Assembly (NCBI GenBank): GCA_035547915.1
Contig: DASZTS010000014.1
Location: 53,134-117,133, forward strand
From: Pirellulales bacterium
Lineage (GTDB): Bacteria; Planctomycetota; Planctomycetia; Pirellulales; JAICIG01
Direction: 5' to 3'
Length of the DNA: 64,000 nucleotides
Part shown: piece after piece, positions 12,248 through 50,690 of the stretch
Position numbering within the stretch: position 1 is the stretch's first letter
Layout: every line of letters starts with the position of its first letter
Notes under the pieces: model-generated
Databases searched by the model: none
Seen by the model: the letters and a program-made list of their open reading frames with translations, nothing else
What the model was told of the DNA's origin: nothing
Position numbers and translations under genes: made by a program

Positions 12248-12321
12248 CGGCGTGTAGGAAAGCCTGGGACTCCGCGTGCGTCGGGAGCACGAGATCGCCG
12301 GTTCAAATCCGGCCACGCCGA
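12248..12321 (+). tRNA. tRNA-Pro(CGG)
   Basis: C1:G72 acceptor CGGCGTG/CACGCCG, anticodon arm CGTGC-GTCGGGA-GCACG, T-arm GCCGG-TTCAAAT-CCGGC. A T-rich tract follows. The serine recombinase gene ends 18 bp downstream. Confidence 0.8.
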
Positions 12322-13793
12322 CTTTTTTCAGAGATGAGCCCTTCGGCGAGAACGTCGAAGGGCTTTCTCATTGTGGTGACGAGAGTTACGCCGTCGAGGC
12401 GGCAGTTCAAAAACACGATTTCGAGCAAACGACGCTTTGTCGCGTAGTCGGCGGTAAGCCATTGCTGCCGAAGCGTTTGCGAAAGTTCAAAAACTTTCGA
12501 CGCCAGCTCCGCCGTTTCGTCGTGCGACCGGTCGAGCGCGTCGAGTTGCAGCTTGATCGACGCCATTCGGTCACGCAACTCCGTGTGTTTGCGGGCGAAC
12601 GTCTCCTGGTCGATGTCATCCGACAGTCGCATGTTGAGCAACCGGTCCTGCTGCTGCACGAGCAACGTCTCCTGCCGCTGAAGCTCCGAACGCTGGGCCA
12701 TCGACTCGGTCTGCGCATCCCGCGTCTGTGAAGCAAGTACCAGCCGGAACCAATCGCGGACGCTCTCATCCTCGACCTGCATCTTGTCGAACACGGCCAG
12801 CACCTGCTGGTCGATGTCGGCTTCCGTGACACGCACGCGGGGATGCCCAGCCCTGTTGTAGTACGTGCAGCGGTAATAGATGTAGAAGCGGTCGCCGTTC
12901 TTCGACTTTTTCCTGACCTTCTCGCCGGTAATCGGATGGCCGCAATGGCCGCATTGGATGATGTCGCCGGCGTACGTGATCGCGTGCGACTGGTAAATGT
13001 GATCGCCAAGCAGCACCTGCACGCGGTCCCACGTCGCACGGTCGATCAGCGGCTCGTGTTTGCCGGGATACCACTCGCCCTTGTGGAGGATTTCGCCGAT
13101 GTAGGCCCGATCCTTCAGAACGTTGTGGACCATGCTGCGGGGAAACTTCGGCTGTGCATCCCGAAAGACCCGCCCATCAGCTTCGAGCCGCTCGACCAGG
13201 CCGTCGAGGGTCACGTTCTCGTAGGCATAGAGATGGAAGATGCGTTTGACGTTGGCGGCAGCCGGGGGATCAACCTCGATGATGCCCCGCCCATCCTTGC
13301 GGACGTTGCGATAGCCATACGGAGCCAGTCCGATAAACCAGCCTTCCCGCACGCGACGGGCCAGCCCCTCGCGGACATCCACTGATTGCTGCTCGGTGTA
13401 GAAGCTTGCCATGTTGGCAAGCGTCCGCCGCATCATGCGGCCGGCGGGCGTATTTTCCGTCGGCTGCGACACGGAGATGAACGGCAGGTCGTATTCCGAC
13501 TCCAGCCGTTCCAGCTCAACGTAATCGAAGAGATTGCGGGCAGCCCGGTCCACCTTGTAGAACAGCAAGCCGTCGAGGAACGGGGCGTTCTTCTTGGCGT
13601 ACGCGATCAACTCGCGGAAGGTTTTCCGCTCATCAGTCTTGCTCGCCGTCTCGGCGATCTTGAACAGCTTGGCGATTTCGCCACCGGCCTGCATGGCGTA
13701 TCGCTTGAGGGCTTCTTCCTGTACTTCGAGGCTGAATCCCTCGCGTTCCTGTTCCCGGCTGCTTACCCGTGCCAACGCGACAAACTGTTTCAT
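12303..13793 (-). CDS. Large serine recombinase (site-specific integrase)
   Basis: N-terminal resolvase catalytic domain (ALARVSSREQ...), recombinase domain and Zn-ribbon (CGHCGHP...YYRC), coiled-coil C-terminus. Lies immediately adjacent to the 3' end of tRNA-Pro(CGG). Confidence 0.9.
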   Translation of the reverse strand: MKQFVALARVSSREQEREGFSLEVQEEALKRYAMQAGGEIAKLFKIAETASKTDERKTFRELIAYAKKNAPFLDGLLFYKVDRAARNLFDYVELERLESEYDLPFISVSQPTENTPAGRMMRRTLANMASFYTEQQSVDVREGLARRVREGWFIGLAPYGYRNVRKDGRGIIEVDPPAAANVKRIFHLYAYENVTLDGLVERLEADGRVFRDAQPKFPRSMVHNVLKDRAYIGEILHKGEWYPGKHEPLIDRATWDRVQVLLGDHIYQSHAITYAGDIIQCGHCGHPITGEKVRKKSKNGDRFYIYYRCTYYNRAGHPRVRVTEADIDQQVLAVFDKMQVEDESVRDWFRLVLASQTRDAQTESMAQRSELQRQETLLVQQQDRLLNMRLSDDIDQETFARKHTELRDRMASIKLQLDALDRSHDETAELASKVFELSQTLRQQWLTADYATKRRLLEIVFLNCRLDGVTLVTTMRKPFDVLAEGLISEKSRRGRI

Positions 13794-14050
13794 GGCGGGG
13801 ACCCCGAAGAAAGAGCCTGATACAACCGACCCACAGTCTGGATCATTGTAACGGCATCTTCGGGCGAAAGAAGGTCCGCATAATACGGCTGCCAGACACG
13901 GATCGTCTTCTCGATCAGTTCAGCCGTGATCCAGTCCGGCGTCCCGGCCGGAACGACGCCGGGGCGGGCATCGTTGCCGGTAGTGTCAGCCTTCTTTCGA
14001 TTGCTGCGGGACATGACTGGACACCACCACGAAATGCGCGCACGGTCCAA
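13790..14050 (-). CDS. Hypothetical protein
   Basis: ORF translationally coupled (4-bp overlap) to the recombinase gene. No recognisable motif. Confidence 0.35.
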   Translation of the reverse strand: MDRARISWWCPVMSRSNRKKADTTGNDARPGVVPAGTPDWITAELIEKTIRVWQPYYADLLSPEDAVTMIQTVGRLYQALSSGSPP

Positions 14051-14098
14051 CTGGCACCGCCGCGCGGAATTGTCGAACGCGAGGATCGGCGTTGCCGG

Positions 14099-14356
14099 TC
14101 AGCGGCCCGGCAACAAACCCTCCCGCTGGTAACGCCGAAGTTCATCATGGCTTATTGACCACGAGGCAAAGCTGGCACGACCGCTGAGCTTCTTGCTGGC
14201 CTGGATGCGACCGCCACGTGCCCATCCACGCACTGTCAAACTGGCACGCCCCACGATCCGGGCGAATTCCTCGACCGAATACCACTCCTGCTGCCGCGTC
14301 TCGACCAGCACGGCCAGCATCGCCTCGATCTTCTCAAGCCGTTGTTCCAGCGTCAT
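14099..14356 (-). CDS. Excisionase/MerR-like HTH DNA-binding protein (putative recombination directionality factor)
   Basis: Motif 'YSVEEFARIVGRASLTVRGWARGG' is typical of excisionase-family HTH domains. Located next to the serine recombinase. Confidence 0.5.
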   Translation of the reverse strand: MTLEQRLEKIEAMLAVLVETRQQEWYSVEEFARIVGRASLTVRGWARGGRIQASKKLSGRASFASWSISHDELRRYQREGLLPGR

Positions 14357-14529
14357 GCTCCACCTCAGCTCGCGCCTGTGTCAAAGTCCGACTTGAAATT
14401 CCCGTCGCTCGCAGCAACGCTCACCACGAGCGCTTCGATCACTACCAACACGATGAATTCAAACATCGGTACTCCTTCAAAAAATCCGGGAAAGATGATT
14501 GCCAGATGGGCACTGCCAGGCCCATGCGG

Positions 14530-14811
14530 CTAGTTTTTACTGGCTGTGATGGCCGCTCGCGCCGCGGCGATACCGGCCACCACCGCCCCGATGTCGTCGA
14601 TCAGCCCGAACGGCCCCAGCAACGCTTCGGGCACGATGTCGATCGGCGAAATGCAGTAAATCCCGCAGAAGATTGCGACACTCCAGCCCACGATCGGCAT
14701 AAGGAATTCCCGTAGCTTGCTGTTGGGCATCGACAGCAGCACTCCAAAGGCCACCGCCAGGAGGGTGCCGCAAAACACCATCAACTGAATTGTTCCAAAG
14801 AAACTGCTCAT
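14530..14811 (-). CDS. DUF1232-like small membrane protein
   Basis: Two TM segments and a 'ISPIDIVPEALLGPFGLIDDIGAV' motif characteristic of DUF1232/YkvA. Confidence 0.5.
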   Translation of the reverse strand: MSSFFGTIQLMVFCGTLLAVAFGVLLSMPNSKLREFLMPIVGWSVAIFCGIYCISPIDIVPEALLGPFGLIDDIGAVVAGIAAARAAITASKN

Positions 14812-14860: not shown

Positions 14861-15082
14861 CTACATTTCCATTCCCTGACTCTGCTCCTCGATCTGTTGC
14901 TGCGGCTCTGGCTGGGCAACCTCCGGGCCGCCCTCCCGGCTCGCGTCCGGCCACTGGCCGGGACCGTAGGGAACGAACGCACTGCCGTTGAAGATGGCGT
15001 TGGCCAGTTCCATTTGGCCCTGCGTGGCCATCCGGCTCATCTCTTCGCCCACTTCGTTAAGAATGTCGCCAAGAATTGACAT
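14861..15082 (-). CDS. Hypothetical small acidic protein
   Basis: ORF only. Confidence 0.3.
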   Translation of the reverse strand: MSILGDILNEVGEEMSRMATQGQMELANAIFNGSAFVPYGPGQWPDASREGGPEVAQPEPQQQIEEQSQGMEM

Positions 15083-15105: not shown

Positions 15106-15972
15106 CTATTGCTTCGCCGCACGTAAGTTAGTGGCAGCCGGTGCGGCATCGGTTCGAGTATGGTTCCAAGACGTATCGTCACGTGTGCCGCCGATCGAAC
15201 GCTGCTCGACCGATCGCCGGGAAACACGCGGTCTGCTAGCCTGGTCGGGCAATGCGCGACCAGCTTCTTTCGGATTGCCGTCCCGGTCGAATTCATCCAT
15301 CGTGTAGCGGAGCGCCTCACGTGACATCATTCGACCTTGCAACACGGCCCGGCGATGCGATCCGCTGTACTGGTGCATGAGTGTCAGGGTGCCGAGCGAC
15401 ACCAGGATTGCCGCCGCCAGCACAGCCACACACCCCCGTTTGATTCTGGCCTGTGCCCGCCGCCGGTCGTCTGCACTCGGCGGACCGAAGGATTCTTCGT
15501 AATAGCGGACCGTCGTCGTCCACAGCGGGGGAATGCCGGGCGTGAATATGATCGCGGTTCGCGGTGACAGTCCCTCTATTTCTTCGGGCTTCAGCAGCTT
15601 GCGGACCTGCTGGCCCCAACCGCTATTCTGGTTCTCCGAATAGCTGCTGCTTCCTTGCCCCGCCCCCGATGGCGACTGCACAGATTTCCCGGTGCTGCTG
15701 CCGCCGTTGTCCACCACGACCGTTTCCTCGCCCAGCCGGGTACTGACATACTGCGAAGTCTGTGGGTCGTTGACGCCGACGAACACTTGCGACGTGTTCG
15801 ATAAAATAGTTTGATCCTGGCCGTCGGGGCCTAGCTTCTTGAGCTGACCCAGCGATTGCAGCAGGTAAATCAGATGCACGCCGTAGCCTCGATATTTATC
15901 CTGCGCGTCATCGAGGGCGTCCATGTGACCCAGGCTGCCCGCTTCATCAAGGACAAAATGGACCTTTTTCAT
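15106..15972 (-). CDS. Type IV coupling protein TraG/VirD4, C-terminal fragment (Walker B onward)
   Basis: Begins MKKVHFVLDEAGSLG (Walker B DEAG), then LIYLLQSLGQL and TAIIFTPG. Overlaps the upstream fragment by 4 nt (ATGA). Confidence 0.7.
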   Translation of the reverse strand: MKKVHFVLDEAGSLGHMDALDDAQDKYRGYGVHLIYLLQSLGQLKKLGPDGQDQTILSNTSQVFVGVNDPQTSQYVSTRLGEETVVVDNGGSSTGKSVQSPSGAGQGSSSYSENQNSGWGQQVRKLLKPEEIEGLSPRTAIIFTPGIPPLWTTTVRYYEESFGPPSADDRRRAQARIKRGCVAVLAAAILVSLGTLTLMHQYSGSHRRAVLQGRMMSREALRYTMDEFDRDGNPKEAGRALPDQASRPRVSRRSVEQRSIGGTRDDTSWNHTRTDAAPAATNLRAAKQ

Positions 15973-17240
15973 TGCTGGAGTCCTCCTTCAACCACCGCCC
16001 GGAGCATCGCGCCAATCCACATCCGCATCAGGGCTGCTTGTGCCCGCAAATGCTCCGGCGGCAGGACCAGGTACACCGTCATCTTTCCGTTTCGTAGTCT
16101 GGCGGGATCGAAGCTGCTGGTCCGCGTATTCTCCGCGACGGCGATTGTGTCGAGGAATCGCAGGAAGCGGTTGGTTGTCGTGAGGACTGAGCTAAGTTCC
16201 TTGTCCTTGAAATGTGCGAGTTGGCCGCCTATTCGCCGAAGCATTCCGCCCCAGGCATCCGAGCCTTGCATCAATGCGATTGCGGCTTCCAGCTTTTTCG
16301 GATTTGAAAGAAGCGTGCGGACCGCCTGCAACGACCGGTCATCGCCGGGTTCTGCAAACTGCACGACCATCGAGCACAGCCCCGCTATAAGTGCTTCCGC
16401 ACTGTCTGGAAAATGCGGGTCTCTCTCTTGTCCAGTCCGAATCACAAATGCGTTGGCGAGATCAAAACATGCGTCGATCGCCAGCGGTGATTCCCTCTTG
16501 ATGAAATCCAGCGGATTGAAGGTGTCCGGCGTCTGCGTCACCACTTTGTAGGGATCGAGGATTCGCACCTCGTGCCCAAACACTTTCTCTCTGTGCGTCC
16601 CCGTTAAGGACGCTAATTCCCCTTTGACATCGACCACGACGCATGAATCGGGGCAAGTTTGCAGGAAGGGGATGACAAACGAAACGCCTTTGCCCACACC
16701 CGTGGGAGCGAACACCGCCGTATGTACGGCGTTTGGCAGCCTTACCAGCTTCTGTTCGGGCTGCCTGAACATTGCCAGAAACTCCTTGCACGCGGTTTCA
16801 TCATCAATCTGCCGGTCAAACAGGGCTTTGATTGCCGGACCGGCTCTCTGAGGGGAATCGGTGACTCGCCCAAGGATTAAGCCACTGTCGGCATCAAGCA
16901 TTCCGGCTCGCCTCAAATCCTCAGAGCCGGCCCAGCGGGCCGACCCCAACGTGGTCAACCGGTTTTTCTTCTTCCTGCAATGGACCACGATGACGACGGC
17001 CACGACCGTGAGCACGAAGTAGGGGTACATCCAAGCCGCGAGGCCACAAGGCAAAGCAATTGCCACGACGGCCACGACCAGCATTTGGCGATAGAAACTC
17101 ATTCCGCACCTCACTTCAAACTCGGATAAGCGGCCACATGCGGCGCTGCCTTCGGGTCCAGACCGTCCACGCTTGATTCTGCCGTGTCCTTCAGATGCTC
17201 TCGCATTGCAGACAGCCATGTCTCGGCCGCATTTCGCCAA
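15969..17240 (-). CDS. Type IV coupling protein TraG/VirD4, N-terminal fragment (TM + Walker A)
   Basis: N-terminal TM helices, Walker A APTGVGKGVSFVIP and TraG/VirD4-like all-alpha domain. Stops immediately before the Walker B encoded by the next ORF, so the gene is split (frameshift). Confidence 0.75.
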   Translation of the reverse strand: MAKCGRDMAVCNARASEGHGRIKRGRSGPEGSAACGRLSEFEVRCGMSFYRQMLVVAVVAIALPCGLAAWMYPYFVLTVVAVVIVVHCRKKKNRLTTLGSARWAGSEDLRRAGMLDADSGLILGRVTDSPQRAGPAIKALFDRQIDDETACKEFLAMFRQPEQKLVRLPNAVHTAVFAPTGVGKGVSFVIPFLQTCPDSCVVVDVKGELASLTGTHREKVFGHEVRILDPYKVVTQTPDTFNPLDFIKRESPLAIDACFDLANAFVIRTGQERDPHFPDSAEALIAGLCSMVVQFAEPGDDRSLQAVRTLLSNPKKLEAAIALMQGSDAWGGMLRRIGGQLAHFKDKELSSVLTTTNRFLRFLDTIAVAENTRTSSFDPARLRNGKMTVYLVLPPEHLRAQAALMRMWIGAMLRAVVEGGLQQ

Positions 17241-17273: not shown

Positions 17274-18089
17274 TCAGTCGTTTGCATGACTAACCCTCTT
17301 GGCTCTGTCCCGCATCGCTGATTGCCATTTCTTCACGTCATACCGCTTCGCCGCTTTACGAGCCTCCTGAAGCGTCTCGGCAAGTAGCTGTACTATTTCC
17401 GACATTCCGAGTTCCTTGCCGGTAATCACGACCGTGGCTTGCGACATCGGTATCTTCACTCGCGACAGGTGGACCGCCTGAGCCTGGCCCTGCCGGGCCT
17501 TGCGGCTTTGCCGCTCAACTTCATCGCGCGAGCTTCCCGACCGAATCGCGGCCAGCATCCGCCGTTGCTCCTCCTCCTCACCGGCTTTCTTGATCGCATA
17601 AGCTTTTGAGAAGCCGAACTCGCCGTTCAAGAAGGCTTCCTTCGCTTCCGGGATCAGGTCGTCCACCGAGAGAATCCGCGGCATCATCGACGGGTCGAAA
17701 CGCATGTCCGCCGCCAGTTCCTTCTTTGACCGGTCAGGGCTCTCCGCCGCAATTTCCTTGCAGGCCCGGTACACCTCTGCGTCGGTCAACCCTTCCCGCA
17801 GCAGGTTTTCGATCAATTGCAGCCTCTTGATCTCGCCGGGGCTCACCTCGCCATCGAGCACTTTCACGTCAGCGTGCGTAATTCCGGCGAGCTTCATAGC
17901 CCGCAGCGACCGTTCCCCGGCCACCAGCGTCCGGTCACGCAGCACGACCAGCGGGCGAAGCTGCCCGTCGCGTTTCAGGCTTTCGGCGTGCCGCCGAAGT
18001 CCCTCTTCGTCAAACTGCTTGCGGACGTTTTCCTTGACGATGATGTCTTCCACCGCCCATCGCTCGTAGGTTCCGATTGTGGTCTTCAT
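17274..18089 (-). CDS. ParB-like nuclease / partition-domain protein
   Basis: ParB/Srx N-terminal motif (VAGERSLRAMKLAG) and HTH middle domain. Confidence 0.75.
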   Translation of the reverse strand: MKTTIGTYERWAVEDIIVKENVRKQFDEEGLRRHAESLKRDGQLRPLVVLRDRTLVAGERSLRAMKLAGITHADVKVLDGEVSPGEIKRLQLIENLLREGLTDAEVYRACKEIAAESPDRSKKELAADMRFDPSMMPRILSVDDLIPEAKEAFLNGEFGFSKAYAIKKAGEEEEQRRMLAAIRSGSSRDEVERQSRKARQGQAQAVHLSRVKIPMSQATVVITGKELGMSEIVQLLAETLQEARKAAKRYDVKKWQSAMRDRAKRVSHAND

Positions 18090-18484
18090 TGCGACCTCCT
18101 TTCATCTCTCAAAGGTTCACTCAACTTGCCCTGCTTCGATTTCCCCCGATCCGCCTCCCACTGCTTCAACTCCGTGAAGAGTTCGACCGCCCTGATCGCG
18201 TCTTGCAGATTCCCCTGACTCTCCTTCCACCTGACGAACTCAAGAAACCGGTCGAAGAATCTGGCCCGCCATGCCGATTCCGTTTCCGTTTTTGATGCCC
18301 ACCACACCAGTGCCAGGCTGAAAATCGTCGCTGCCGGAAACAGCGGCATGTACACTCGCGGATCGTGAAGGCCATCCCTGTCCCAAAGCTCTGGATGCGT
18401 CAGGTCATCGTGAATGACCCAGCCGTACCAGACCGGTCCCACGGTTAAGAAAAGCAGGAGAATGGCGGCCTGAATGTTTTTCAT
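18086..18484 (-). CDS. Hypothetical membrane protein
   Basis: ORF with TM segments, coupled to parB-like gene. Confidence 0.4.
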   Translation of the reverse strand: MKNIQAAILLLFLTVGPVWYGWVIHDDLTHPELWDRDGLHDPRVYMPLFPAATIFSLALVWWASKTETESAWRARFFDRFLEFVRWKESQGNLQDAIRAVELFTELKQWEADRGKSKQGKLSEPLRDERRSQ

Positions 18485-18551
18485 GATCCGTTTCCTTCAT
18501 GCGGGTTGCCTGCTGCGGGCAAAGGGCGCTTTGCGCCCCTTATCCTGCTGG

Positions 18552-18767
18552 CTAGGCGTAGAGGCACTTCACCGTTTCGATGACCCACTTCAACTGATGG
18601 GATGACAGCTCCTGAAGCGCCGTGTTGTAAAACTTCCTTGCGTACTCGGCGGCGGCACGATCCGCCTGTTCCTGTTCCTCCTTGCTGAGCCTGTAGTACC
18701 ACCACAGCGTGAAAATTCCGGCTGCGGCTGCCACGGCGGCGAGAATTCCAGTGATTGGGTATGCCAC
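18552..18767 (-). CDS. Small single-TM protein (paralog A)
   Basis: 71 aa with an N-terminal TM helix followed by a WWYYRLSKEEQEQAD motif. Paralogous to the adjacent ORF. Confidence 0.4.
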   Translation of the reverse strand: MAYPITGILAAVAAAAGIFTLWWYYRLSKEEQEQADRAAAEYARKFYNTALQELSSHQLKWVIETVKCLYA

Positions 18768-18824
18768 GACGATCCTCCTCTCTCTTCAGTCCGAATTGCT
18801 TTCCACATGCCTTCGCCGCCCGGC

Positions 18825-19052
18825 CTACTGGCCGCCGTCAAAGTGCCTACGCTTCACGTGAGCGTACACGTCGTTCAACTCCTGCTTGCTGAGCTGGTCG
18901 ATTCCCTTGCGGAACAGGCTGATCGCATATCGCTTTGCCAGTTCGTCAACCTTTGCCCGCTCTTCCTTGCTCAGCGTCCAATACCAAACAGAGTGCATGA
19001 GGCCCAATCCCGCGAGAATCCCGGCTCCAATTGGGATGAGTGGAAAAAACAT
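18825..19052 (-). CDS. Small single-TM protein (paralog B)
   Basis: 75 aa with the same architecture (TM helix, then VWYWTLSKEERAKVDEL). Tandem duplicate of 18552-18767. Confidence 0.4.
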   Translation of the reverse strand: MFFPLIPIGAGILAGLGLMHSVWYWTLSKEERAKVDELAKRYAISLFRKGIDQLSKQELNDVYAHVKRRHFDGGQ

Positions 19053-19078
19053 GCTTCAAGCTCCTTTCGATTCTGTGC

Positions 19079-19798
19079 TTAAACCTTGACTAATGATTCC
19101 GTCGCCCCGTCCAAACCAGCAACAACCATCCTCGCTGTTTGCTCGTGCGGAGAGTTGGCCTCGAACACCGCCCTGCTGAACCCAATGGGCGTGGCCGAAC
19201 GCAGGTTGGCCCGTTCCTCGGATGGCGGCAGCAAGTGCATCTTGCTGCCCAGCGTCGGTTCAACCCGCCTGGGTTCCGGCAGGCGAAACCCGCCGCCAAC
19301 CCAGAGGCACGTTCGCTTCGTGTACGCCTCTGGGCTGGGATCATCCAGATAGCCGGCGTAGTCGCAGGGATCGAACGAGTAATCCGGCTTCCGCCAGTAC
19401 GTCGAGAGTGTGCTGACCGGGTTCTCAATGAGAAACGGGGCGTTGCTTGCTTCACATATCGCATTGCACGCAGCGACGACGCGGAGAGAATCTGCCAGTG
19501 CGTCCAACCCCTTGTCCTTGAACCACCTCGCCCCGGAAACAGCCAGATGGGTGCAGGGTGGGAAGGCGAATACAAATGCCACCGGACGCCCGAGCGGCGG
19601 GCAGAACCGTGTCACGTCGGCTCCTACCTTGCGGATACCATTGAGCAGCGGACCGGTGCCGGACGGATGCTGTAAATCGACCGTCCAGCATTCGTACCCA
19701 ACTGCGGCCCACGGCGCGACCGCGTGGCCGGTTAGGTCGCAGAGCGACAGAACGAGCGGAGGGCATTCCAAACACGATGTTTTCGATTTCTGATTCAT
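19079..19798 (-). CDS. Short C5-cytosine DNA methyltransferase-like protein
   Basis: Motif IV-like FPPCTHLAVSG (compare GPPCQGFS) and motif VI-like FLIENPVSTL (ENV). Only 239 aa, with no obvious target-recognition domain. Confidence 0.4.
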   Translation of the reverse strand: MNQKSKTSCLECPPLVLSLCDLTGHAVAPWAAVGYECWTVDLQHPSGTGPLLNGIRKVGADVTRFCPPLGRPVAFVFAFPPCTHLAVSGARWFKDKGLDALADSLRVVAACNAICEASNAPFLIENPVSTLSTYWRKPDYSFDPCDYAGYLDDPSPEAYTKRTCLWVGGGFRLPEPRRVEPTLGSKMHLLPPSEERANLRSATPIGFSRAVFEANSPHEQTARMVVAGLDGATESLVKV

Positions 19799-21190: not shown

Positions 21191-21454
21191 CATTGTTGAT
21201 TGCCAAAGACTTCAAGTACTGGTAATACAACTGCGCGACTGGCATTACTCGCATTTGTGCTAGGGGTACAAATCTGGGGTATCTATCTTCGCAGCACCGG
21301 ACAATCTTCATTTAATCCAGTCACTTGCTTTCGCAATGTGATTCCGACCCGGGGCACCATCTATTTGGACCATGACGTTCCCAGGTGTCCGCGCAATAGA
21401 GGATGAGAGCCGATCTCCGAGTGACCGGCTCTCATAGTGGTCCAACGAGAATCG

Positions 21455-21500: not shown

Positions 21501-21524
21501 GGTTAAACGTAAAATGTACCCCAG

Positions 21525-37474: not shown

Positions 37475-39061
<1,587 letters not shown>

Positions 39062-39072
<11 letters not shown>

Positions 39073-44000: not shown

Positions 44001-44111
44001 ATCAAGCGGATTCTCCGCAAGCACGGCTACCCGCCGGACAAGCAGGAGAAAGCGACCAATACCGTGCTGGAGCAAGCCGAGGCCCTGTCGCGGGCCTGGG
44101 TCGATGTGTAA
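41040..44111 (+). CDS. hsdR: Type I restriction endonuclease subunit HsdR
   Basis: N-terminal nuclease domain, SF2 helicase motifs ([25 protein letters not shown]) and a C-terminal helical domain. Confidence 0.92.
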
Positions 44112-44190: not shown

Positions 44191-44574
44191 GTGAGAATCA
44201 TTGGACATGGAATCGACATAGTTGAAATTGCCCGCATTCAACGCCTGCTCGATATGCCAAACAGCGAATGGACACGGGCTGCATTCACTTCAAAAGAACG
44301 CGAACTTGCCGACGCACCACCGGCAGACACCCGATATTTCGCAGCACGCTACGCCGCCAAAGAAGCAGTAGGTAAGGCACTCGGAACAGGAATAAGCGGG
44401 GAGATCGCATGGATGGACATCGAAATCCTGCGCCAAGCGACAGGTGAACCGGCGGTGTCCCTGACGCATGCCGCACTGGAGTCCGCCAATGAGCTTGGGG
44501 TAACCCGCTGGATCATCAGCATCAGCCATAGCGGCACGTATGCCGTGGCCAGCGCTATTGCCGTCAGTGAATGA
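44191..44574 (+). CDS. acpS: Holo-[acyl-carrier-protein] synthase (4'-phosphopantetheinyl transferase, AcpS type)
   Basis: MRIIGHGIDIVEIARI...AAKEAVGKALGTG matches AcpS throughout. Confidence 0.8.
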   Translation: MRIIGHGIDIVEIARIQRLLDMPNSEWTRAAFTSKERELADAPPADTRYFAARYAAKEAVGKALGTGISGEIAWMDIEILRQATGEPAVSLTHAALESANELGVTRWIISISHSGTYAVASAIAVSE

Positions 44575-44590: not shown

Positions 44591-46555
44591 CTATTGAGTC
44601 TCCTTCATCGTGATCGAGTGCGCATCCAGGTCAACGATGAGACTGCCCGCACCGCGCCGTTTGATTTCCCTCCAAACAGCAAATCCCTCGATGATCGCCT
44701 GTTCCCACTCGCCTGGTGTACAGCAGGATACCTCCAGATGTGACGTCATGTTTTTAATCATCCGGAGGAGTTCGGCGCTCACGCTCGCCTTTCCCTCAAG
44801 CCAGTTGTAATCCTTGGCGTAGGCGAAAATCATGGCAGAAAGCCCTTCCTCCGTCGCGATGGCCCTGCCTCCATCCTCGACTTGATCCACAATTGGATTG
44901 CTCTTCCGTTTCTTCTTCAACATCCTCCGGGTCAGTGGAGACCAGCCAAGCACGGCGGCAAAGGAAAGATGCAGCACGTCATGGAAACCATAGCCATCTT
45001 TCTCGTAGGCGTTATCCGTGAGCGGGTCGCCAAATGGCTCGCCCTTGTAGAAGACCCGGACAACTTCCTTCTCGTCCTTGTCGTGGGTGGTTGCGAAGTC
45101 GATCACAAACCGACGCGGGAATCGTTCCCCCTCTGGGAAGCCTGCATCCAGCGGCTTGCGTTTCGGCAAAGCCCCCCAGCGCTGTTCGCACTTTGCGAGG
45201 TTCCGTTCGGCGACCTCTGCCAGATCAAGGCCGAACTTCGTAGCCAGATTTGACAAATACCAGAGCAGGTCGCCGAGTTCCTCCACAAAGCGATCTTGAA
45301 ACAATGTGTGGGATTCGCCATCGCGCAAGAACTTCTTGTACTCGGTGAGCAATTCACCTGCCTCGCCGGCAAGGCCAAGGAGCGGAATCATGACGCCCTT
45401 TTGATCGGAACCTGGATTCCGGTCGGTCTTCGCCGCTCGCTGTTGATATGCACGCAGGTCCATTTTTGTTCCTCCTGAAGTTGTGATCGTTGTAGCGTCA
45501 AGGCAGTGCGCTGCTACTGCCGCATTGAGGCCCCACTTCGGCGGATACCAATACGAGATCGGTTCAGGATTCGGCCTGAATCGTTGCTTGATGCGGGTTC
45601 GCCCGTTCTGGCCACTAAATTCGGGATGCCGGACGCGGGCGTATTTATCCACCTCACAGAAGAGGTTCTGGCAGTCAATAAGCTGGAGCCTTCGCCCCCA
45701 TAAACTTTGGAATTCAAGGCCCAAGCGAGCAAACTCAGCCTCCTGCCGATCCGCCATGAACCGGATGACTTCAGCATCGTTCAATCCTGCTGTGTCATGA
45801 AAGCACTTGCGAATGCCGTCCATAGCACCAGGCCCAGGAACGACAAACTCCATCTCTGAGAAGCTCGTAAGCGGGCTATAGTTCACATCCGTTGCGTACT
45901 GATATGCCAAGAAATCGCCGATGGTCGCATATCCGCGCAACAGGTCGAATGCGCGCTGCATATTTGGCGCGTCCTTCAAGCGGCGAGGCAAGCCATCGCT
46001 CAACATTGTCTCGATTAGGACAAGGTGATTGCGATGCTTCTTCACGTGACCGAAGGATTGTCCCGACGGCATGATGTAGGCAGCGGAGTATACTTTCGCA
46101 CCGCGAGACATGGCGCGCGTGAGAATCTGGTCGTAGCGCTTGAATGAGTAGTCCTCGTAAGTGACCTGCCCAAGGGATTGCTCCAAAAGCTCCCACGTCT
46201 CAATCCGATTGAACACCTTGAAAAGGATAAGACGGAAGAACACTTCCTGTGGGTCGCTCGGCAAGTCGTCACGATAGATGACTCGCCGGATAAGGTATTG
46301 GCTAACGCGATCCGAAGCGCGGTAAGCGTTCGTGAATTTGTGGGCAAGCAATACAGCGTCATCTGTCCAGGGTGGCAGTTCTTGCGCTAGGCGTTTGAAG
46401 AATATCCGCTGCCGTTCGGCGGCGAGCCGCCAGTACGTGTCAAAGACAGCCGTCGGCTTCAGCGGTGCAATACACGGCGGTGCATATTCGCCCTGTGGCG
46501 CTTGCTTCTGGGCGAAGAGTCCCGCCCCTGACCTACGTGCTGACTTCATGGGCAA
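44591..46555 (-). CDS. Multidomain protein: N-terminal ~370-aa domain of unknown function + MazG-like NTP pyrophosphohydrolase domain + C-terminal domain
   Basis: MazG all-alpha NTP-PPase signature (MIPLLGLAGEAGELLTEYKKF...EELGDLLWYLSNLATKFGLDLAEVAERNLAKCEQRW). The N-terminal region (FKRLAQELPPWTDDAVLLAHKFTNAYRASDRVSQYL) was not recognised. Overlaps the TS-like gene by 10 nt. Confidence 0.7.
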   Translation of the reverse strand: MPMKSARRSGAGLFAQKQAPQGEYAPPCIAPLKPTAVFDTYWRLAAERQRIFFKRLAQELPPWTDDAVLLAHKFTNAYRASDRVSQYLIRRVIYRDDLPSDPQEVFFRLILFKVFNRIETWELLEQSLGQVTYEDYSFKRYDQILTRAMSRGAKVYSAAYIMPSGQSFGHVKKHRNHLVLIETMLSDGLPRRLKDAPNMQRAFDLLRGYATIGDFLAYQYATDVNYSPLTSFSEMEFVVPGPGAMDGIRKCFHDTAGLNDAEVIRFMADRQEAEFARLGLEFQSLWGRRLQLIDCQNLFCEVDKYARVRHPEFSGQNGRTRIKQRFRPNPEPISYWYPPKWGLNAAVAAHCLDATTITTSGGTKMDLRAYQQRAAKTDRNPGSDQKGVMIPLLGLAGEAGELLTEYKKFLRDGESHTLFQDRFVEELGDLLWYLSNLATKFGLDLAEVAERNLAKCEQRWGALPKRKPLDAGFPEGERFPRRFVIDFATTHDKDEKEVVRVFYKGEPFGDPLTDNAYEKDGYGFHDVLHLSFAAVLGWSPLTRRMLKKKRKSNPIVDQVEDGGRAIATEEGLSAMIFAYAKDYNWLEGKASVSAELLRMIKNMTSHLEVSCCTPGEWEQAIIEGFAVWREIKRRGAGSLIVDLDAHSITMKETQ

Positions 46556-47412
46556 CCCTTCGCGCCGACGAGCGAGTCAACGTTTTCGGTCTCGATGCAC
46601 GCCCGCGACAGTGCCATCAGCCGGTCGAGGAGAACACCACGCTTCGGGCGCATCGCAGAGTCCATTTTCTGAATGCCCGTGTAACAACAGAGCTGACTGA
46701 AACGCAGGCCAGTTTGACTGGCGACGAACTCGCCAAGCCGGCACAATCCCAGCCAGTTTCCATATGCCTTCACGAACAACTGCTGAGTTGCATAGAAGGC
46801 GTTGAGTGCCAACGTCCCGTCGGTGAAATCGGGCACGAAAGTGATGTGCTGGAGGCACGGGAATCCTTGCTGCGCCGCGCCAGTCAGGTCGCGCACTGGG
46901 TCATAGACCGCAGCTTGAAGCATTGCTCGCCTTTTTCCCTTTTGGCAGTGCTCAATGATGAACTCGATTTGATTGCCGTCGCTGCTCCATGCAGTCGCGG
47001 GCAGGTGCTTTACACGCTGCCCTGTTCTTGGATCAGTCCCGAATGCGATCAACCGGGCGAAATACATCCCGTGTCCATTCTTGGATGGCTCCATCGTCAC
47101 GTAGTCGGGGAGGTAAGTGAGATAGTCCTTGTACAGTTTGTAGCGGTCGCCATTGGCACGCCGCCACAATGCCTGCGGGAAGATCGACTTCGCCACCTTC
47201 TCGACAAGCTGATGCCCGGCTTCGTCAAGGCAAGCGTCGAGCGCGGCACGCACGTCCTTATCCTCTGTGACAACGCCATCGGCGAAGCCGGTGACACTGA
47301 CCAGACATGGCGTCAGCTCGTGACCGCGCCGTGAAAGCGCTTCGAGGAAGCACCGTGACCAGGCCATTGAGAGACTCGGATCGCTGCTCGCGTACAGACC
47401 ATTCTTACTCAT
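46546..47412 (-). CDS. Divergent thymidylate synthase-fold protein (ThyA / dNMP hydroxymethylase family)
   Basis: GFPCLQHITFVPD...GTLALNAFYATQQLFVKAYGNWLGL aligns with the TS catalytic-Cys region (LPPCH..[33 protein letters not shown]). Confidence 0.5.
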   Translation of the reverse strand: MSKNGLYASSDPSLSMAWSRCFLEALSRRGHELTPCLVSVTGFADGVVTEDKDVRAALDACLDEAGHQLVEKVAKSIFPQALWRRANGDRYKLYKDYLTYLPDYVTMEPSKNGHGMYFARLIAFGTDPRTGQRVKHLPATAWSSDGNQIEFIIEHCQKGKRRAMLQAAVYDPVRDLTGAAQQGFPCLQHITFVPDFTDGTLALNAFYATQQLFVKAYGNWLGLCRLGEFVASQTGLRFSQLCCYTGIQKMDSAMRPKRGVLLDRLMALSRACIETENVDSLVGAKGCP

Positions 47413-48286
47413 CGTCGCCTTCCTCTCGTGCCAGGTGCCGATATTGACTCCAACCGGCGTACTGGTACGGCGATATCCGAACCACCACGGCCCATTGACC
47501 AGGGGCCTCGACTCGGCTCAAGCCAGCCCTTTCAGCTCTAAACAGTCGGCCTGCGGACAGATCGCCGATCGGTGTAAGGCAAGTGCGATACTCAGGTTCG
47601 CTGCCCGCAGGCAGCAACAGAAACGTGCCGACTTCGGCGTCAACTTGCGCCAAAGCATAATGTTGGTCGGCGACGATCAATCGTTCCGCCGCATCTGAAC
47701 CGAGTAGCGCACGGCGGATGGCGGGCAGCTTCGCGCGCCGCAGCTTTTCCGCCTGCCTTGTACCGATCTCGCCCAGACCATAAGCCAAGTGGCTCACTAT
47801 GGTCTCATATCCAACGCCGAAGTGGCACGCGACCACGTAAAGCTGCTCTGGCGAGGCCGCATTTAGAGACCACTTTCGGGCCGTAAACGCGCGCCGAACC
47901 CCGAGCTTCGGCATCAGGAGAAAGCCGGCGAACGCATTGACTAAAAACTCATTCGGGTCGGTGCGTGGATTGGCATGGCTGTCCTCTTGAAGCTCGTCGA
48001 TTGTGGAGCCGTGGCCGAACACATGATGCCCAAGTTCATGTGCACAGTTAAAGACCCGACGCGGTAGTGGGCGCAATGCCGAGACTTGGATCAAGGGGCG
48101 ACTTGACCGAAGGTAGCACCCTTCCATGTTGTAATCGACGAACAGCACACGTACCTTCGGTGAAAGCCGGTCGCATAGGTCGAAGACGTTCAAGGGCGTG
48201 CCGAAGTCGATTCCTGCACGCTCGCGGACCTCCAGCGCCATCTGCAATGCGTCCTGGGCCAGTGCGGTTCGGTCCACCACGGTCAC
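47405..48286 (-). CDS. ImmA/IrrE-family metallopeptidase (DUF955)
   Basis: HEXXH motif (CAHELGHHVFGH) in the ImmA-like context, directly downstream of the XRE repressor gene. Confidence 0.8.
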   Translation of the reverse strand: MTVVDRTALAQDALQMALEVRERAGIDFGTPLNVFDLCDRLSPKVRVLFVDYNMEGCYLRSSRPLIQVSALRPLPRRVFNCAHELGHHVFGHGSTIDELQEDSHANPRTDPNEFLVNAFAGFLLMPKLGVRRAFTARKWSLNAASPEQLYVVACHFGVGYETIVSHLAYGLGEIGTRQAEKLRRAKLPAIRRALLGSDAAERLIVADQHYALAQVDAEVGTFLLLPAGSEPEYRTCLTPIGDLSAGRLFRAERAGLSRVEAPGQWAVVVRISPYQYAGWSQYRHLAREEGDDE

Positions 48287-48633
48287 TCTCCTTCACGTGG
48301 GCCGCGGAGCGCCGCCAACGCGCGCATTAGTTTGTCCAAGTCATCTGGTTTTAGTTTTTGCAATTCGCGAAACGCAAGTTGCAGTCGCTCGTCTTGGGGC
48401 TGGAGCTGATCCCCTCCCTCGCCCGATAGCCAAGCGACACTGACATCGTATATTTCCGCGAAGCGGGTCAGCTCCGTTACGGTCACGTTCCGGTTACCCG
48501 CCTCAATCTCCGAAATCGTCGGGCGGTGCAGGTCCATCATTTTTGCCACCTGCCCCTGTGACAGGCCCGCCAGCTTGCGCGCTTCCCGGAGCCTTCGGGC
48601 GATGAGCTGCTTCTTGTCCAATGTGTCGCTCAT
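48283..48633 (-). CDS. XRE-family HTH transcriptional repressor (ImmR-like)
   Basis: LREARKLAGLSQGQVAKMMDLHRPTISEIEAGNRNVTVTELTRFAEIY helix-turn-helix. Confidence 0.8.
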   Translation of the reverse strand: MSDTLDKKQLIARRLREARKLAGLSQGQVAKMMDLHRPTISEIEAGNRNVTVTELTRFAEIYDVSVAWLSGEGGDQLQPQDERLQLAFRELQKLKPDDLDKLMRALAALRGPREGE

Positions 48634-48935
48634 GTCTTGGCCTCCTGTCCAGCGTAGGCTTCAATGAAGCGGTGCGCGATCTCCTCGATGGACAGCTTGC
48701 GCTTGCCGTCTTGAGATACGTAAATGTTCTTCACCCGCGTTCCCTCTGGCAGTGGGTTGCCCAAATCCCGGGCAAGCCTGCGGACGATTTCGGGAATGAA
48801 GTCACTCTCAAAGCCCTTTAGACCATCCAACGGGCAAATTGACGGACGAATTTTGTCTTCGTCGTCGTAGCCTCCGCCGCGCTGGTAATCGCGATGGATT
48901 TCGACGAGCTTGGCGACCACATCGTCTTTTTTCAT
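48630..48935 (-). CDS. Hypothetical protein
   Basis: RBS AAAGGAGA then ATG (MKKDD...). First gene of the XRE-ImmA-TS-like-MazG operon. Confidence 0.45.
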   Translation of the reverse strand: MKKDDVVAKLVEIHRDYQRGGGYDDEDKIRPSICPLDGLKGFESDFIPEIVRRLARDLGNPLPEGTRVKNIYVSQDGKRKLSIEEIAHRFIEAYAGQEAKT

Positions 48936-49233
48936 CGGTAAATCTCCTTTATGTAAGATAATCTTACCAACCGGTAAGGAGGCTGTCAAGGAGAATTTCG
49001 TCATGCACCTTCTGCCTGACGCACGTGACCGCTTCCGCCGCCTTGCGGCACACCTTGCGATGCGAACTACTTTGCGGCCCCTGCCATTTCATGTCTGAAC
49101 GCCGCCCCAGCCAGACGTCAAGCGGGACTAAGCCCATCGAAAAAGACGTGACAATCGGGCGTGGAGTGGTTTGCTCTCAGGCAAATCGCCCAGAACCAGG
49201 GTCAAGACTGGCTGAAGACAGTGCAAGCAATCA

Positions 49234-50436
49234 TTACGCCTTCGCCGCAGCTTCAAGCTGCTTCTCGTTGGCGACGACATCGACATGCCACACTCCCGCC
49301 TCCGCAAGGAACTTAGCCGCACGCTTCGCGAGGTTCAGCAGTCGTGTGTCGTGTGTGAGAAAGATGTTCATCGTGCTCAACATTGCGGCATGCTCGCAGT
49401 CGAACGACAGCCCACCCGTCGGAATCTCCCCCTTGGCCAGGCACATTTCCAACTCTCCCAACACTACCTCGTCAGGCACGCGGGCGTATAAAAGGCACGT
49501 GCGCGACAGATTGCGGAATAGTATTTGGAGCGCCTTGGCCAGGAGCTGAGCGTCGGACGCGCACTGCGCCGGGGCCGCCTCCGCGAGAAACTTCGGCGGC
49601 GCCATCGCCTTGTTTCCGTGGATGACACCCCAGTAATCCCGGATCGCAGCCGTGTCAAACGTCATGAGCAGGAACGAATTGCGGTGGAACACGCTGGCCA
49701 TACACTGCCCTAATTCCGCCGCGCTATACGCCTCCGCAACCTGCTTTTTGTTCTTTTGAAGGCGTCCACGCGTGGCGTCGTCCATCGGCGTTGCCTGCGC
49801 CACATTCTGGTCGATCTCGTCGCGCAGGTCCTGGAGTGGCCGTGCATCGAATTCGGCCCAAATGTCGTCGGTCGTTACCAGAAATTCTTTGGCGCATTTG
49901 ACCATCTCGTCCACGAACGCCGCCGGGGCACGGGCGAATCGCGAGTGAAGCAATCGGCTGGTGATCTTCGACCGTAAAAGATCATCAATCGCCTCTGGGC
50001 GGTTGAGCGTCCGGAGCGCCGCAAGCATGGCGAGCAGGCCCGCATATACCTGTTGGCTGGTAGTCTGCGCGAACTCGAAATAATCCAAGCACCGGATGGC
50101 CGCCGGGGCCGCAGCGTCAATGACCTGGAGCAAATTCCGCACAAGCAGAAACTCGAATCCGGGTGCCATCCGGCGGCAATTGGTCAGTTCGACAAGTGCC
50201 TGGGCGAGGCGCACGCGAAGGTCCAGCTTCGGCGTGTCCCTCAAGCAACTCTGCTCATCGAAATCAGCGCATAGGAAAATCTCCAGCACATTGACCGGGC
50301 TGGTCCACACTTCGACCGCTCCTTCAGCCGCCAGATTGGCGATCATGCCGCCGAGTTTCGTCTCACTCCACGGTGTCGCAGCATCCTCGCACATGGTAGA
50401 AAGGCAACACTGGTCGATGTATAGCTTCTTTGGCAT
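49234..50436 (-). CDS. Hypothetical protein
   Basis: 400-aa ORF with no recognised motif. Last gene of the element before the tRNA array resumes. Confidence 0.5.
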   Translation of the reverse strand: MPKKLYIDQCCLSTMCEDAATPWSETKLGGMIANLAAEGAVEVWTSPVNVLEIFLCADFDEQSCLRDTPKLDLRVRLAQALVELTNCRRMAPGFEFLLVRNLLQVIDAAAPAAIRCLDYFEFAQTTSQQVYAGLLAMLAALRTLNRPEAIDDLLRSKITSRLLHSRFARAPAAFVDEMVKCAKEFLVTTDDIWAEFDARPLQDLRDEIDQNVAQATPMDDATRGRLQKNKKQVAEAYSAAELGQCMASVFHRNSFLLMTFDTAAIRDYWGVIHGNKAMAPPKFLAEAAPAQCASDAQLLAKALQILFRNLSRTCLLYARVPDEVVLGELEMCLAKGEIPTGGLSFDCEHAAMLSTMNIFLTHDTRLLNLAKRAAKFLAEAGVWHVDVVANEKQLEAAAKA

Positions 50437-50690
50437 TCAGATCAGGCTCCGCATTTACGCATCCGCGTGTCGCACCGGCGCGCAGTTCCTCTCCGCCTCC
50501 CCAAGTTACGACGCTGGTACGTGGCCAAGGTTCGCGCCTACCTAGCTAGGGTAAATTCGCTCATTTCTGCAAGCGGTCTCCGAAGCCGGGTATCGCCGCA
50601 AGTGCTTGCCCTGCAAGCGGTAGCTGCGAACAAAGTGATTTGACGCCGGCGATAAAAAGTTCAATAGCCGTCTTGTCGCCCCGACTCGAT

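Follow-up and report, generated by a model that had tools for sequence, protein, structure and literature searches.

We find that a 38-kb segment of the 64,000-nucleotide stretch of Pirellulales DNA analyzed here (contig DASZTS010000014.1, hereafter "the window") has been inserted into a 38-gene tRNA array of a planctomycete chromosome, dividing it in two. The inserted segment (12324–50686; 38,363 bp, counting one CT dinucleotide) is very probably an integrative mobilizable-type element, placed immediately 3′ of tRNA-Pro(CGG) by its own large serine recombinase (LSR).

The 38 tRNA genes located by ARAGORN share the + strand and fall into two blocks (11097–12322, n = 10, and 50691–55861, n = 28); 29 of them are confirmed at the Rfam gathering score, and an Rfam scan of the window returned no RNA family besides tRNAs. 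The upstream block closes with tRNA-Pro(CGG) and the downstream block opens with tRNA-Asn(GTT), the ~38.4 kb separating them being protein-coding by profile searches (Pfam, NCBIfam, PADLOC). This DNA has a G+C content a few percent below that of the flanks, and the cumulative GC skew declines over its left two-thirds (~12–38 kb). To either side lie typical Planctomycete genes (PSCyt/PSD-domain proteins, DUF1552, WD40, Band-7), in agreement with a preliminary description of the window, which had called the flanks ordinary planctomycete genes and tRNAs. The array as a whole covers all 20 amino acids, including a tRNA-Ile(TAT), and holds a single tRNA with anticodon CAT.

Anchoring the comparison on Band-7, whose gene comes directly after the array, we fetched 80 related Planctomycetia loci, of which 27 carry the same ordered array (at least 15 + strand tRNA genes) upstream of Band-7. 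The largest gap in any of these 27 arrays is 2.5 kb, and we therefore do not regard the 38-kb gap of the window as a product of chance. tRNA-Pro(CGG) is followed by tRNA-Asn(GTT) after 6–38 nt in six of the loci (L009, L012, L032, L034, L038, and L045); in two others (L010 and L016), it is followed by tRNA-Pro(GGG) after 4–5 nt and then at once by tRNA-Asn(GTT). The empty site of relatives reads …CCTGA-CTTTGAT-TGCGGTGGG, with CTTTGAT forming the spacer between tRNA-Pro and tRNA-Asn. The closest Band-7 relatives (L001 and L002) are rearranged or too short for an empty-site comparison. Since the array is uninterrupted in relatives and the element proteins are absent from the related loci (tblastn against all 80 gave no match), the 12.3–50.7 kb region is an insertion. 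The preliminary description had placed a ~38-kb element just after tRNA-Pro(CGG) in a tRNA array, and comparison with genomes that lack the insertion, the check it called for, bears this out: the array is contiguous there and the junctions can be delimited. The contrary possibility it had named, that the window's gene order is ancestral and a continuous array exists nowhere, was weighed in the same comparison, the outcome of which favors insertion.

A large serine recombinase defines a family of tRNA-end insertions

The LSR gene (12303–13793, − strand, 496 aa) lies at the left edge of the element. Its product contains all three serine-integrase domains (Resolvase PF00239, 78 bits; Recombinase PF07508, 50 bits; Zn_ribbon_recom PF13408, 38 bits; all above cut-off), has an N-terminal ARVSSREQ motif that includes the candidate catalytic serine, and shows weak full-length similarity to CcrB and XisF. 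The gene does not end 18 bp past the 3′ end of the tRNA, as had at first been reported; its stop codon (12303–12305) lies within the T-loop of tRNA-Pro(CGG), giving an antisense overlap of ~20 nt in which the last six LSR codons and the stop run antisense to the tRNA 3′ end.

Relatives of the LSR fall into more than 120 protein clusters (76–93% identity, nearly all exactly 496 aa), from sources named Pirellulales, Planctomycetales, Planctomyces, Zavarzinella, and Phycisphaerae. We examined 81 loci of these relatives, 80 metagenomic and one from Zavarzinella (L081, Zavarzinella formosa JH636442), 77 of which hold the junction inside the locus; their flanks extend at most 10 kb, and the window's element is the sole complete one delimited. 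At 48 of the 77 junctions, the LSR open reading frame (ORF) ends 20 nt inside an antisense tRNA, reproducing the geometry of the window; the tRNA is tRNA-Pro in 40 cases (spanning four anticodons) and tRNA-Ser in eight. A further 24 junctions abut a fragment resembling the tRNA-Pro 3′ end, with the T-loop motif GTTCRAAT exactly 21 nt before the CT dinucleotide, and the remainder comprise two with a tRNA-end mimic of the window's type (see below) and three others. An additional integrated copy (L164) sits at a solitary tRNA-Pro(CGG). The constant length of the protein follows from the target, because the antisense strand of the T-loop TTCAAAT supplies an in-frame TGA; in the attachment site configuration of the free element (attP), the LSR frame extends to 515–531 aa. 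A conserved C-terminal extension in this attP state was considered and set aside, as the shared part is limited to the 11 residues that the mimic encodes, the remainder being divergent.

In a neighbor-joining tree of the LSRs, a single clade, placed within the tRNA-Pro users, contains seven of the eight that use tRNA-Ser, and the eighth lies in the adjacent sister clade, which suggests that the switch of target from tRNA-Pro to tRNA-Ser happened once. Judged from these sequences, the LSR defines a Planctomycetota-wide element family, apparently undescribed, that shares a tRNA-end target. In seven loci (L081, L084, L088, L108, L124, L155, and L160), only the 3′ half of tRNA-Pro, beginning at the anticodon stem, adjoins the LSR; such half-tRNA junctions suggest either tandem islands at one tRNA or elements carrying a longer tRNA fragment.

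Upstream of the LSR, the interval 13790–14356 (− strand) encodes an 86-aa ORF and an 85-aa excisionase-like protein of the HTH_17 family (14099–14356), the latter scoring 26.5 bits in Pfam, just under the cut-off of 27. The HTH_17 protein stands just upstream of the LSR in 26 relatives, and the nucleotide block 12240–14375 is conserved in up to 82 alignments; we regard this protein as a candidate recombination directionality factor. It is followed by a DUF1232 membrane protein (14530–14811; Pfam) and a 73-aa ORF (14861–15082; tblastn to relatives), both on the − strand.

Element boundaries and attachment sites

The left junction of the element reads …GGTTCAAATCCGGCCACGCCGA-CT-TTTTTCAGAG… and the right junction …AAAAAGTTCAATAGCCGTCTTGTCGCCCCGA-CT-CGAT-[tRNA-Asn]. 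When attL (…CACGCCGACT|TTTTTC) is set against attR (…GCCCCGACT|CGAT), the only stretch shared is the 6-bp CCGACT, and crossover probably takes place at or within this core, the CT of which lies at 12322–12323 in attL. A CT follows the discriminator base in all but two of the 77 junctions of relatives.

On the host side, tRNA-Pro(CGG) (12248–12322, + strand; ARAGORN; Rfam, 51.1 bits) is intact, with perfect pairing of its acceptor stem (CGGCGTG/CACGCCG), and its T-arm and acceptor 3′ strand serve as the B arm, the half-site that the host contributes to attL. In attR, the B′ side is made up of the host spacer CGAT (50687–50690) and an intact tRNA-Asn(GTT) (50691–50766, + strand). The left end of the element itself (P′ arm, 12324–12375) consists of a T-rich stretch and a palindrome with a 12-bp stem (12337–12364). 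Its right end (P arm plus CT, 50654–50686) is a 33-nt mimic of the tRNA-Pro 3′ end, AAAAAGTTCAATAGCCGTCTTGTCGCCCCGACT.

Two lines of evidence place the right end at 50686. In two relatives (L139 and L156), the 33-nt mimic, AAAAAGTTCAATAGCCGTC(T/C)TGTCGCCCCGACT, runs straight into the P′ arm on the LSR side, and we read these junctions as attP-type arrangements because the mimic is fused to the LSR end; in L139, the DNA past the mimic is defence cargo (an AddAB-like nuclease and HerA-SIR2). Secondly, a metagenomic contig (L162, JGI Ga0374575_0124) shares 82% identity with the window over 49211–50686, the similarity breaking off exactly at 50686, and is unrelated after …CCCGACT. The span first given for the element, 12303–50690, is hence corrected at its right end, the CGAT at 50687–50690 being host spacer; the estimated size of ~38 kb stands. 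The L162 contig carries the right-end module (a 400-aa gene, noncoding DNA, and the P arm) beside ParA, Replic_Relax, and a T4CP-like gene; it is plasmid-like and has no LSR within 10 kb. At ~11470 of L151, two LSR genes converge with their 3′ ends facing, and the P′ arms come together in a perfect palindrome, AGTCGACT, with no tRNA-like arm between them.

The host-side consensus is gAGgtCGcagGTTCaAATCctgtC..CCCGA|CT, and the mimic shares its proximal 11 nt (TGTCGCCCCGA) with the tRNA-Pro consensus. The two differ in spacing: GTTCAA lies 26 nt from the CT in the mimic, as against 21 nt in the tRNA, a displacement of 5 nt outward. In attP half-sites of serine integrases, the motif for the zinc-ribbon domain lies ~5 bp farther out than in attB half-sites, and the offset of the mimic would fit this difference, a likeness that we regard as suggestive only. 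Several alternative assignments of the ends were tried and rejected. A long direct repeat of the tRNA-Pro 3′ end, the duplication typical of tyrosine integrases, has no copy with three or fewer mismatches in 22 nt; the palindrome cannot be the crossover center, as attL holds all of it and attR none; and a possible second attP, in L141, has ordinary Planctomycete chromosomal genes on its far side. A scan of IMG/VR for the P arm gave no match.

We read the LSR as the integrating enzyme because it is linked to the junction in every relative, because the attP-type junctions abut its gene, and because the shared core measures 6 bp, features that are characteristic of serine integrases.

Nucleotide-level constraint within the recombinase gene

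The palindrome of the P′ arm, AGCCCTTCGGCGAGnACGTCGAAGGGCT, begins 13 nt past the CT and falls within LSR codons 476–485 (fold z = −6.7). We measured synonymous constraint here as third-codon-position entropy among 41 distinct full-length LSR relatives. The stem codons AGA AAG CCC TTC GAC and GCC GAA have an entropy of 0.00 and GGG one of 0.17, the loop codon reaching 1.80; other conserved residues nearby typically score 0.7–1.8, although several of these also lie well below that range. The 12 core pairs are nearly invariant, each being kept in 68–72 of 72 distinct sequences, and changes on both sides that preserve pairing occur in single sequences only. In 57 of the 72, one pair reads G-T on the tRNA-sense strand, which corresponds to a C-A mismatch on the complementary strand. 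Since synonymous sites are frozen and pairing is kept, we conclude that selection acts on the palindrome as nucleic acid; it is possibly a protein-binding site or a terminator-like hairpin for tRNA read-through.

A second constrained motif occurs farther inside the gene, as two exact copies of AGTTCAAAAAC (12404–12414 and 12484–12494, + strand; LSR codons 461–463 and 435–437). Both copies have zero third-position entropy in the same 41 relatives, and they resemble the T-loop motif GTTCAAA that sits 21 nt from the crossover. The passage of the integrase frame across the crossover site and the invariant motifs in its last 60 codons raise the idea that the gene could act as a sensor of integration state, in which the 496-aa and 515–531-aa forms, the palindrome, and the GTTCAAA motifs would together set the direction of recombination or the expression of the integrase. 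Coupled with a separate proposal, that Planctomycetota could possess an undescribed route of transfer (relaxase and coupling protein modules occur phylum-wide, the latter sometimes in two pieces, with no mating pore anywhere), this makes a joint reading that we consider distinctly improbable.

An internal tyrosine integrase module

A second recombinase lies within the element, and its presence bears on which enzyme made the insertion and on whether the insertion is one element or two. An AlpA regulator (20987–21190) and a P4-type tyrosine integrase (21525–22715), both on the + strand and assigned by Pfam, occupy 20987–22715; the integrase gene looks intact, is preceded by a sigma-70-like promoter matching at 11 of 12 positions (21455–21484), and is 9 kb from either end of the element.

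Catalysis by this tyrosine integrase rather than by the LSR, using the CCGACT identity at the tRNA-Pro 3′ end, would accord with its intact frame and strong promoter-like site, and tRNA 3′ ends are the usual target of P4-type integrases that have an Arm-DNA-bind_3 domain. The enzyme is nonetheless encoded far from both junctions, which share 6 bp only, and the attP-type junctions abut the LSR gene; furthermore, in 79 of the 81 loci of relatives the integrase gene is not present within 10 kb of the junction, with no change in junction geometry. These observations make the tyrosine integrase a highly improbable catalyst. The element also differs from P4-type islands in that it has no repeat matching at least 19 of 22 nt of the tRNA end.

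The preliminary description took the two integrases to suggest a composite or nested element, and in its explicit form this would join an LSR element (~12.3–20 kb) to an independent P4-like island (AlpA-Int-TrwC-cargo, ~20.9–50.7 kb) at the same tRNA, with the right-end tRNA-like sequence being the repeat of the island. Such an arrangement would explain two intact recombinases of different families and the tRNA-like right end, which tyrosine-integrase islands typically have; AlpA-Int also lies on the strand opposite to the surrounding backbone, after 1.2 kb of low-GC DNA that lacks good ORFs, and one relative (L154) has TrwC, the 187-aa ORF that follows it, ParB, coupling protein, and LSR as a backbone on one strand without AlpA-Int. 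Internal boundaries are, however, not to be seen: the region of ~14–23 kb has no P arm, tRNA fragment, or direct repeat, a search for P-arm-like sites inside the element found none, and the T-arm motif is absent from noncoding DNA around the integrase, with just two interior hits, both in coding genes (16559, one mismatch; 38223, exact). Nested att sites for the tyrosine integrase were likewise sought and rejected, exact repeats between 19.8–21.5 kb and the rest being at chance level. The halves of the supposed composite are also connected in relatives, as TrwC and the methylase-helicase are linked directly to the LSR in L099, L111, L154, and L160, all lacking a tyrosine integrase; the 33 nt of the right end are joined straight to the LSR end in the attP-type loci; and the mimic departs from the host tRNA by a 5-nt change in spacing, unlike the direct repeat of a tyrosine integrase. 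Where AlpA-Int does recur (L088 and L095), it accompanies the ParB-coupling protein-LSR module in the same position next to ParB. The composite reading is thus unsupported and, in our estimate, improbable; AlpA-Int looks like a small optional module rather than the mark of a second full element, and a two-gene acquisition is possible, as comparison with L154 would indicate.

Transfer genes

The element encodes a MOBF relaxase-helicase, TrwC (23519–26185), and a downstream 187-aa partner ORF (22966–23529), both on the − strand (22966–26185; Pfam, NCBIfam). TrwC scores 243 bits with PF08751 and 195 bits with the MobF equivalog NF041492 (cut-off 100); its relaxase motifs are intact (YY…DYY and HxxxR, here HTTTR, …DPQLHAH), and they are accompanied by AAA_30 and UvrD_C_2 helicase domains. 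The 187-aa ORF follows TrwC in L114, L154, and L160. Just upstream of the trwC start, the interval 26190–26232 contains a hairpin, CGTTAACGAAATGTTAACG (26211–26229), by a GTGATA motif, and GTTAAC…GTGATAG also stands upstream of trwC in L099 and L154; we tentatively list this interval as a candidate origin of transfer (oriT) or promoter-operator, at low confidence.

The TraG/VirD4-type coupling protein (T4CP; 15106–17240, − strand; PF02534, PF12696, PF10412), which the preliminary description had listed as one gene, is present as two overlapping ORFs. The N half with Walker A (15969–17240) and the C half with Walker B (15106–15972) overlap at ATGA, dividing between two polypeptides the domains that would otherwise share one; the frame switches at CAATGAAAAAG, as if one nucleotide had been lost in comparison with intact homologues. 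One ORF encodes the T4CP in L164 and in seven further metagenomic relatives, Zavarzinella L081 among them. In the divergent L108 (~6090), it is split in the same 2–3-residue linker, with an ATG overlapping the stop (ATGGCTAA overlap), and both halves remain open at 46–50% identity to those of the window. From this comparison, a tolerated two-piece T4CP seems as likely as decay.

Upstream of the T4CP are a ParB-like protein (17274–18089, − strand; PF02195, 33.9 bits; TIGR00180 domain hit), which is syntenic with T4CP and LSR in 24 relatives, and a group of four ORFs with no Pfam or NCBIfam hit (18086–19798, − strand). Three of the four are small and predicted to encode membrane proteins (132, 71, and 75 aa); the other, of 239 aa, has FPPC…ENP motifs and is methyltransferase-like by eye. 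Gene orders contiguous in relatives include ParB-T4CP-HTH-LSR, TrwC…LSR, and methylase-helicase…TrwC-LSR.

Pfam scans of the window ORFs found no VirB4 or other family of mating-pair formation (MPF). All element ORFs above 300 aa are assigned except one of 400 aa (49234–50436), far under the size of VirB4. A self-transmissible integrative and conjugative element (ICE) whose pore genes have diverged beyond recognition would be consistent with the several small membrane ORFs adjoining T4CP and ParB, with the unusual envelopes of Planctomycetes, and with the lack of a described conjugation system for the phylum in the survey passages cited below, but there is no VirB4-like ATPase, and the unassigned ORFs are few, short, and not conserved across relatives, so we hold an ICE to be very improbable. 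The element, which is integrated at a definable site and encodes its own recombinase and relaxase without a complete MPF set, is on its gene content like an integrative mobilizable element (IME), and the earlier preference for an IME over an ICE, founded on the lack of VirB4 and of a type IV secretion channel, is upheld.

Whether the element is still mobile is a separate matter. The broken T4CP frame with its apparent 1-nt loss, the lack of MPF genes, and the failure to recover a circular junction for the window's element would all suit a fixed relic that now serves only as a defence island; set against them are the intact LSR, HTH_17 protein, TrwC, ParB, and both att arms, the recurrence of the same T4CP split in L108 (pointing to a tolerated or functional arrangement), and the fact that IMEs by definition borrow a pore. 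The evidence on excision is indirect, coming from the attP-type junctions of L139 and L156. We consider a relic possible but unlikely, and the element may be active today.

Cargo and right-end module

Just upstream of trwC, a 2-oxoglutarate-Fe(II) oxygenase gene (26221–27330, Pfam; interval 26221–27440, + strand) is bracketed by 85-nt direct repeats (26316–26400 and 27356–27440, 92% identical) that look like the footprint of a cassette gain. These repeats were considered as oriT and rejected, being absent from L099 and L154.

A 68-nt hairpin (repeat family D19) occurs twice on the + strand (27687–27754 and 31681–31748), bracketing small ORFs of 120, 137, 143 (zinc-ribbon-like), 95, 67, 66, 71, and 106 aa, the first of which has a homologue in 14 relatives. 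It has 16-nt arms and a C-rich loop (CCCCCTGAAGGTCTCCCCC), each copy stands just 5′ of a gene (copy 2 fold z = −3.6), and it is conserved in L099 (6227–6440) and L111 (4779–4846); it might have a regulatory function or act as a single-strand promoter in the leading region.

The second copy lies within the annotated frame of a 1949-aa N6-methylase and SNF2-type helicase (31162–37011, + strand; Pfam), the true start of which is probably after the hairpin, at ~31.75 kb. Genes on 1011 plasmids match this protein at ~40% identity over 90% of its length. The label "DarB-like" previously attached to it expresses a resemblance only, at this level of identity to plasmid homologues, and the methylase-helicase gene itself is present as described. 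It is followed by a complete Type I restriction–modification system (hsdM, hsdS, a 216-aa ORF, and hsdR; 37471–44111, + strand; Pfam), PADLOC scoring MTase_I at 751, Specificity_I at 307, and REase_I at 1151 bits and so confirming that prediction, and by a 4′-phosphopantetheinyl transferase (44191–44574, + strand; PF01648, 64.7 bits).

On the opposite strand, a five-gene operon (44591–49004, − strand; Pfam) comprises a 124-aa ORF, an HTH_3 gene and an M78 (ImmA/CapP-like) peptidase gene (47405–48633; capP hit in PADLOC), and a thymidylate-synthase (TS)-like gene with an HMUDK_hel-MazG-MazG_C gene (44591–47412; weak TIGR03283 hit). What had been taken for an ImmR/ImmA-like module is thus present as the HTH_3/M78 pair, co-operonic with the TS-like and MazG-type genes, and this pair may control the TS-like/MazG-type module rather than excision. 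PADLOC and NCBIfam gave no hit for the MazG-type protein, and PADLOC has no model for the operon; domains of this kind have been predicted, though not validated, as defensive (PMC13092281), and the operon is a candidate nucleotide-modifying or nucleotide-depleting defence module.

The right-end module contains the 400-aa protein (49234–50436, − strand), which has PIN-like termini by eye and no family hit in Pfam, PADLOC, or NCBIfam. It has only 13 homologues, one of them (89% identical) in L162 with the same right end. Profile searches recovered every gene named in the preliminary description, and the oxygenase, the phosphopantetheinyl transferase, the TS-like gene, and the HMUDK_hel-MazG-MazG_C gene add to its list.

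Repeats and passengers of the tRNA array

The array that receives the element has further features of its own. An HNH endonuclease gene (54452–55111) lies between tRNA-His and tRNA-Trp and is kept at that position in ~30 related arrays (62–78% amino-acid identity), as a stable passenger of the tRNA operon. Two families of intergenic repeats (51215–52660; also 12046–12204, 54196–54356, 55106–55155, and 55315–55343) consist, respectively, of a ~85-nt unit between tRNA genes, TAAGAGCGGCTGACAAAA…, and of hairpins like repetitive extragenic palindromes, CCCTCTCCC…GGGAGAGGGTTAGGGTGAGGGC. Some 140 nt past tRNA-Cys, a tRNA-like fragment (~55967–56027) with a GCACCA end has a T-arm 95% identical to that of tRNA-Cys; it may be a mini-tRNA or the trace left by a different integration event. 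Scans for sigma-70 promoters at the tRNA array and at the right end of the element found none.

Discussion

The observations can be assembled into a mechanism in which the target is the 6–7-nt spacer before tRNA-Asn(GTT) in the conserved Pirellulales array, with both tRNA genes remaining intact. In the circular form, attP would read [33-nt tRNA-Pro-end mimic]-CT-[T-rich stretch, palindrome, and LSR 3′ end], and attB would be [T-arm/acceptor end of tRNA-Pro]-CT-[whatever lies after the tRNA]; the repaired attB is predicted to read …CACGCCGACTCGATTGCGG…. Strand exchange by the LSR, presumably at or next to the CT, would generate attL (tRNA-Pro|LSR end) and attR (mimic|CGAT|tRNA-Asn). Once the element is integrated, its recombinase frame crosses attL and is closed at 496 aa by the TGA antisense to the T-loop TTCAAAT; in the attP state, the frame extends to 515–531 aa. 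Excision would presumably require the neighboring HTH_17 protein, after which TrwC and the two-piece T4CP could process the DNA and deliver it through a mating pore not encoded by the element, and ParB may help to maintain the circle. The cargo carried along is mostly of a defence or anti-defence type: the methylase-helicase, the Type I system, and the HTH/M78-controlled TS-like and MazG-type module.

Several points weigh against integration by the LSR as we propose it. A second, intact tyrosine integrase resides in the element; no circular form and no same-species empty site were found, the window proteins having no record in the contig index; and the B′ side of attB differs between hosts, which is unusual for a serine integrase. 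Moreover, 24 relatives abut tRNA-like fragments and not full tRNAs, and some tRNA-end mimics may be host remnants rather than P arms, as the case of L141 illustrates. The split T4CP leaves the ability to transfer uncertain, and the oriT assignment is weak.

Serine-recombinase IMEs are known, mostly from Firmicutes, and typically integrate within genes (PMC5704250). The element resembles Tn4451/Tn4453 and the streptococcal IMEs described there in having an LSR at one edge, very short end repeats, its own relaxase, and no pore. Those elements insert inside protein-coding genes or with low specificity and use other relaxase families, whereas the element described here targets a tRNA 3′ end without disrupting it, encodes a MOBF relaxase-helicase and T4CP, and resides in Planctomycetota.

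Compared with the islands and ICEs of P4-type tyrosine integrases, there is a common insertion at a tRNA 3′ end, an intact tRNA, a distal sequence resembling the tRNA end, and AlpA with a P4-type integrase inside; insertion at such tRNA ends is classically the work of tyrosine integrases. The differences are that the recombinase at the junction is a serine integrase, that the ends share 6 bp rather than 15–50 bp, and that the sequence at the distal end, instead of copying the host tRNA, is a mimic with shifted spacing that is conserved from one element to another.

Phage serine integrases such as phiC31, Bxb1, and A118/LI likewise combine a three-domain LSR with an attP adjoining int and short sites; their attP half-site is longer than the attB half-site, and a separate small protein is needed for excision. 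Unlike these, the present element has no capsid or terminase genes, targets a tRNA 3′ end, and has an integrase frame that crosses the crossover, such that the C-terminal tail and stop depend on integration state. The filamentous Ralstonia phage phiRSM reportedly uses a small resolvase-type serine recombinase with a tRNA-Ser 3′ end as attB; both cases pair a serine recombinase with a tRNA end, but here it is a large serine recombinase on a conjugative-type element. A literature search linking Planctomycetes with serine integrases found nothing.

Passages of a survey of Planctomycete chromosomes (bioRxiv 10.1101/2024.01.22.576637) describe MOBF and T4CP genes without a complete MPF set and state that conjugation has never been reported in the phylum. 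The gene set of the present element is the same, and it is very probably one of the chromosomal loci of the type counted there; those passages give gene counts, and boundaries, integrase, and target site are defined for the element here. The family to which it belongs would, on the sequences compared, be LSR-driven and mobilizable, with MOBF and T4CP genes, directed at tRNA-Pro and tRNA-Ser 3′ ends, and with an integrase gene that overlaps both its own att site and the tRNA.

The significance of the element lies first in its being delimited to a few bases in a phylum with no shown conjugation, as far as the survey passages go, relaxase and T4CP loci having been only counted in the literature searched. 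A serine integrase family can occupy the niche of the tRNA 3′ end, normally that of tyrosine integrases, at tRNA-Pro and, with a switch in one clade, at tRNA-Ser; a near-complete tRNA operon is split, yet both flanking tRNAs are intact. The recurrent split of the T4CP and the constrained sequences within the LSR gene are peculiarities open to testing. Members of the family transport defence genes, including a Type I restriction–modification system and a predicted, unvalidated TS-like/MazG-type module in the window, and SIR2-HerA with an AddAB-like nuclease in L139. Finally, the compact attP and attB and the single integrase could yield site-specific integration vectors for Planctomycetes, which are genetically hard to manipulate.

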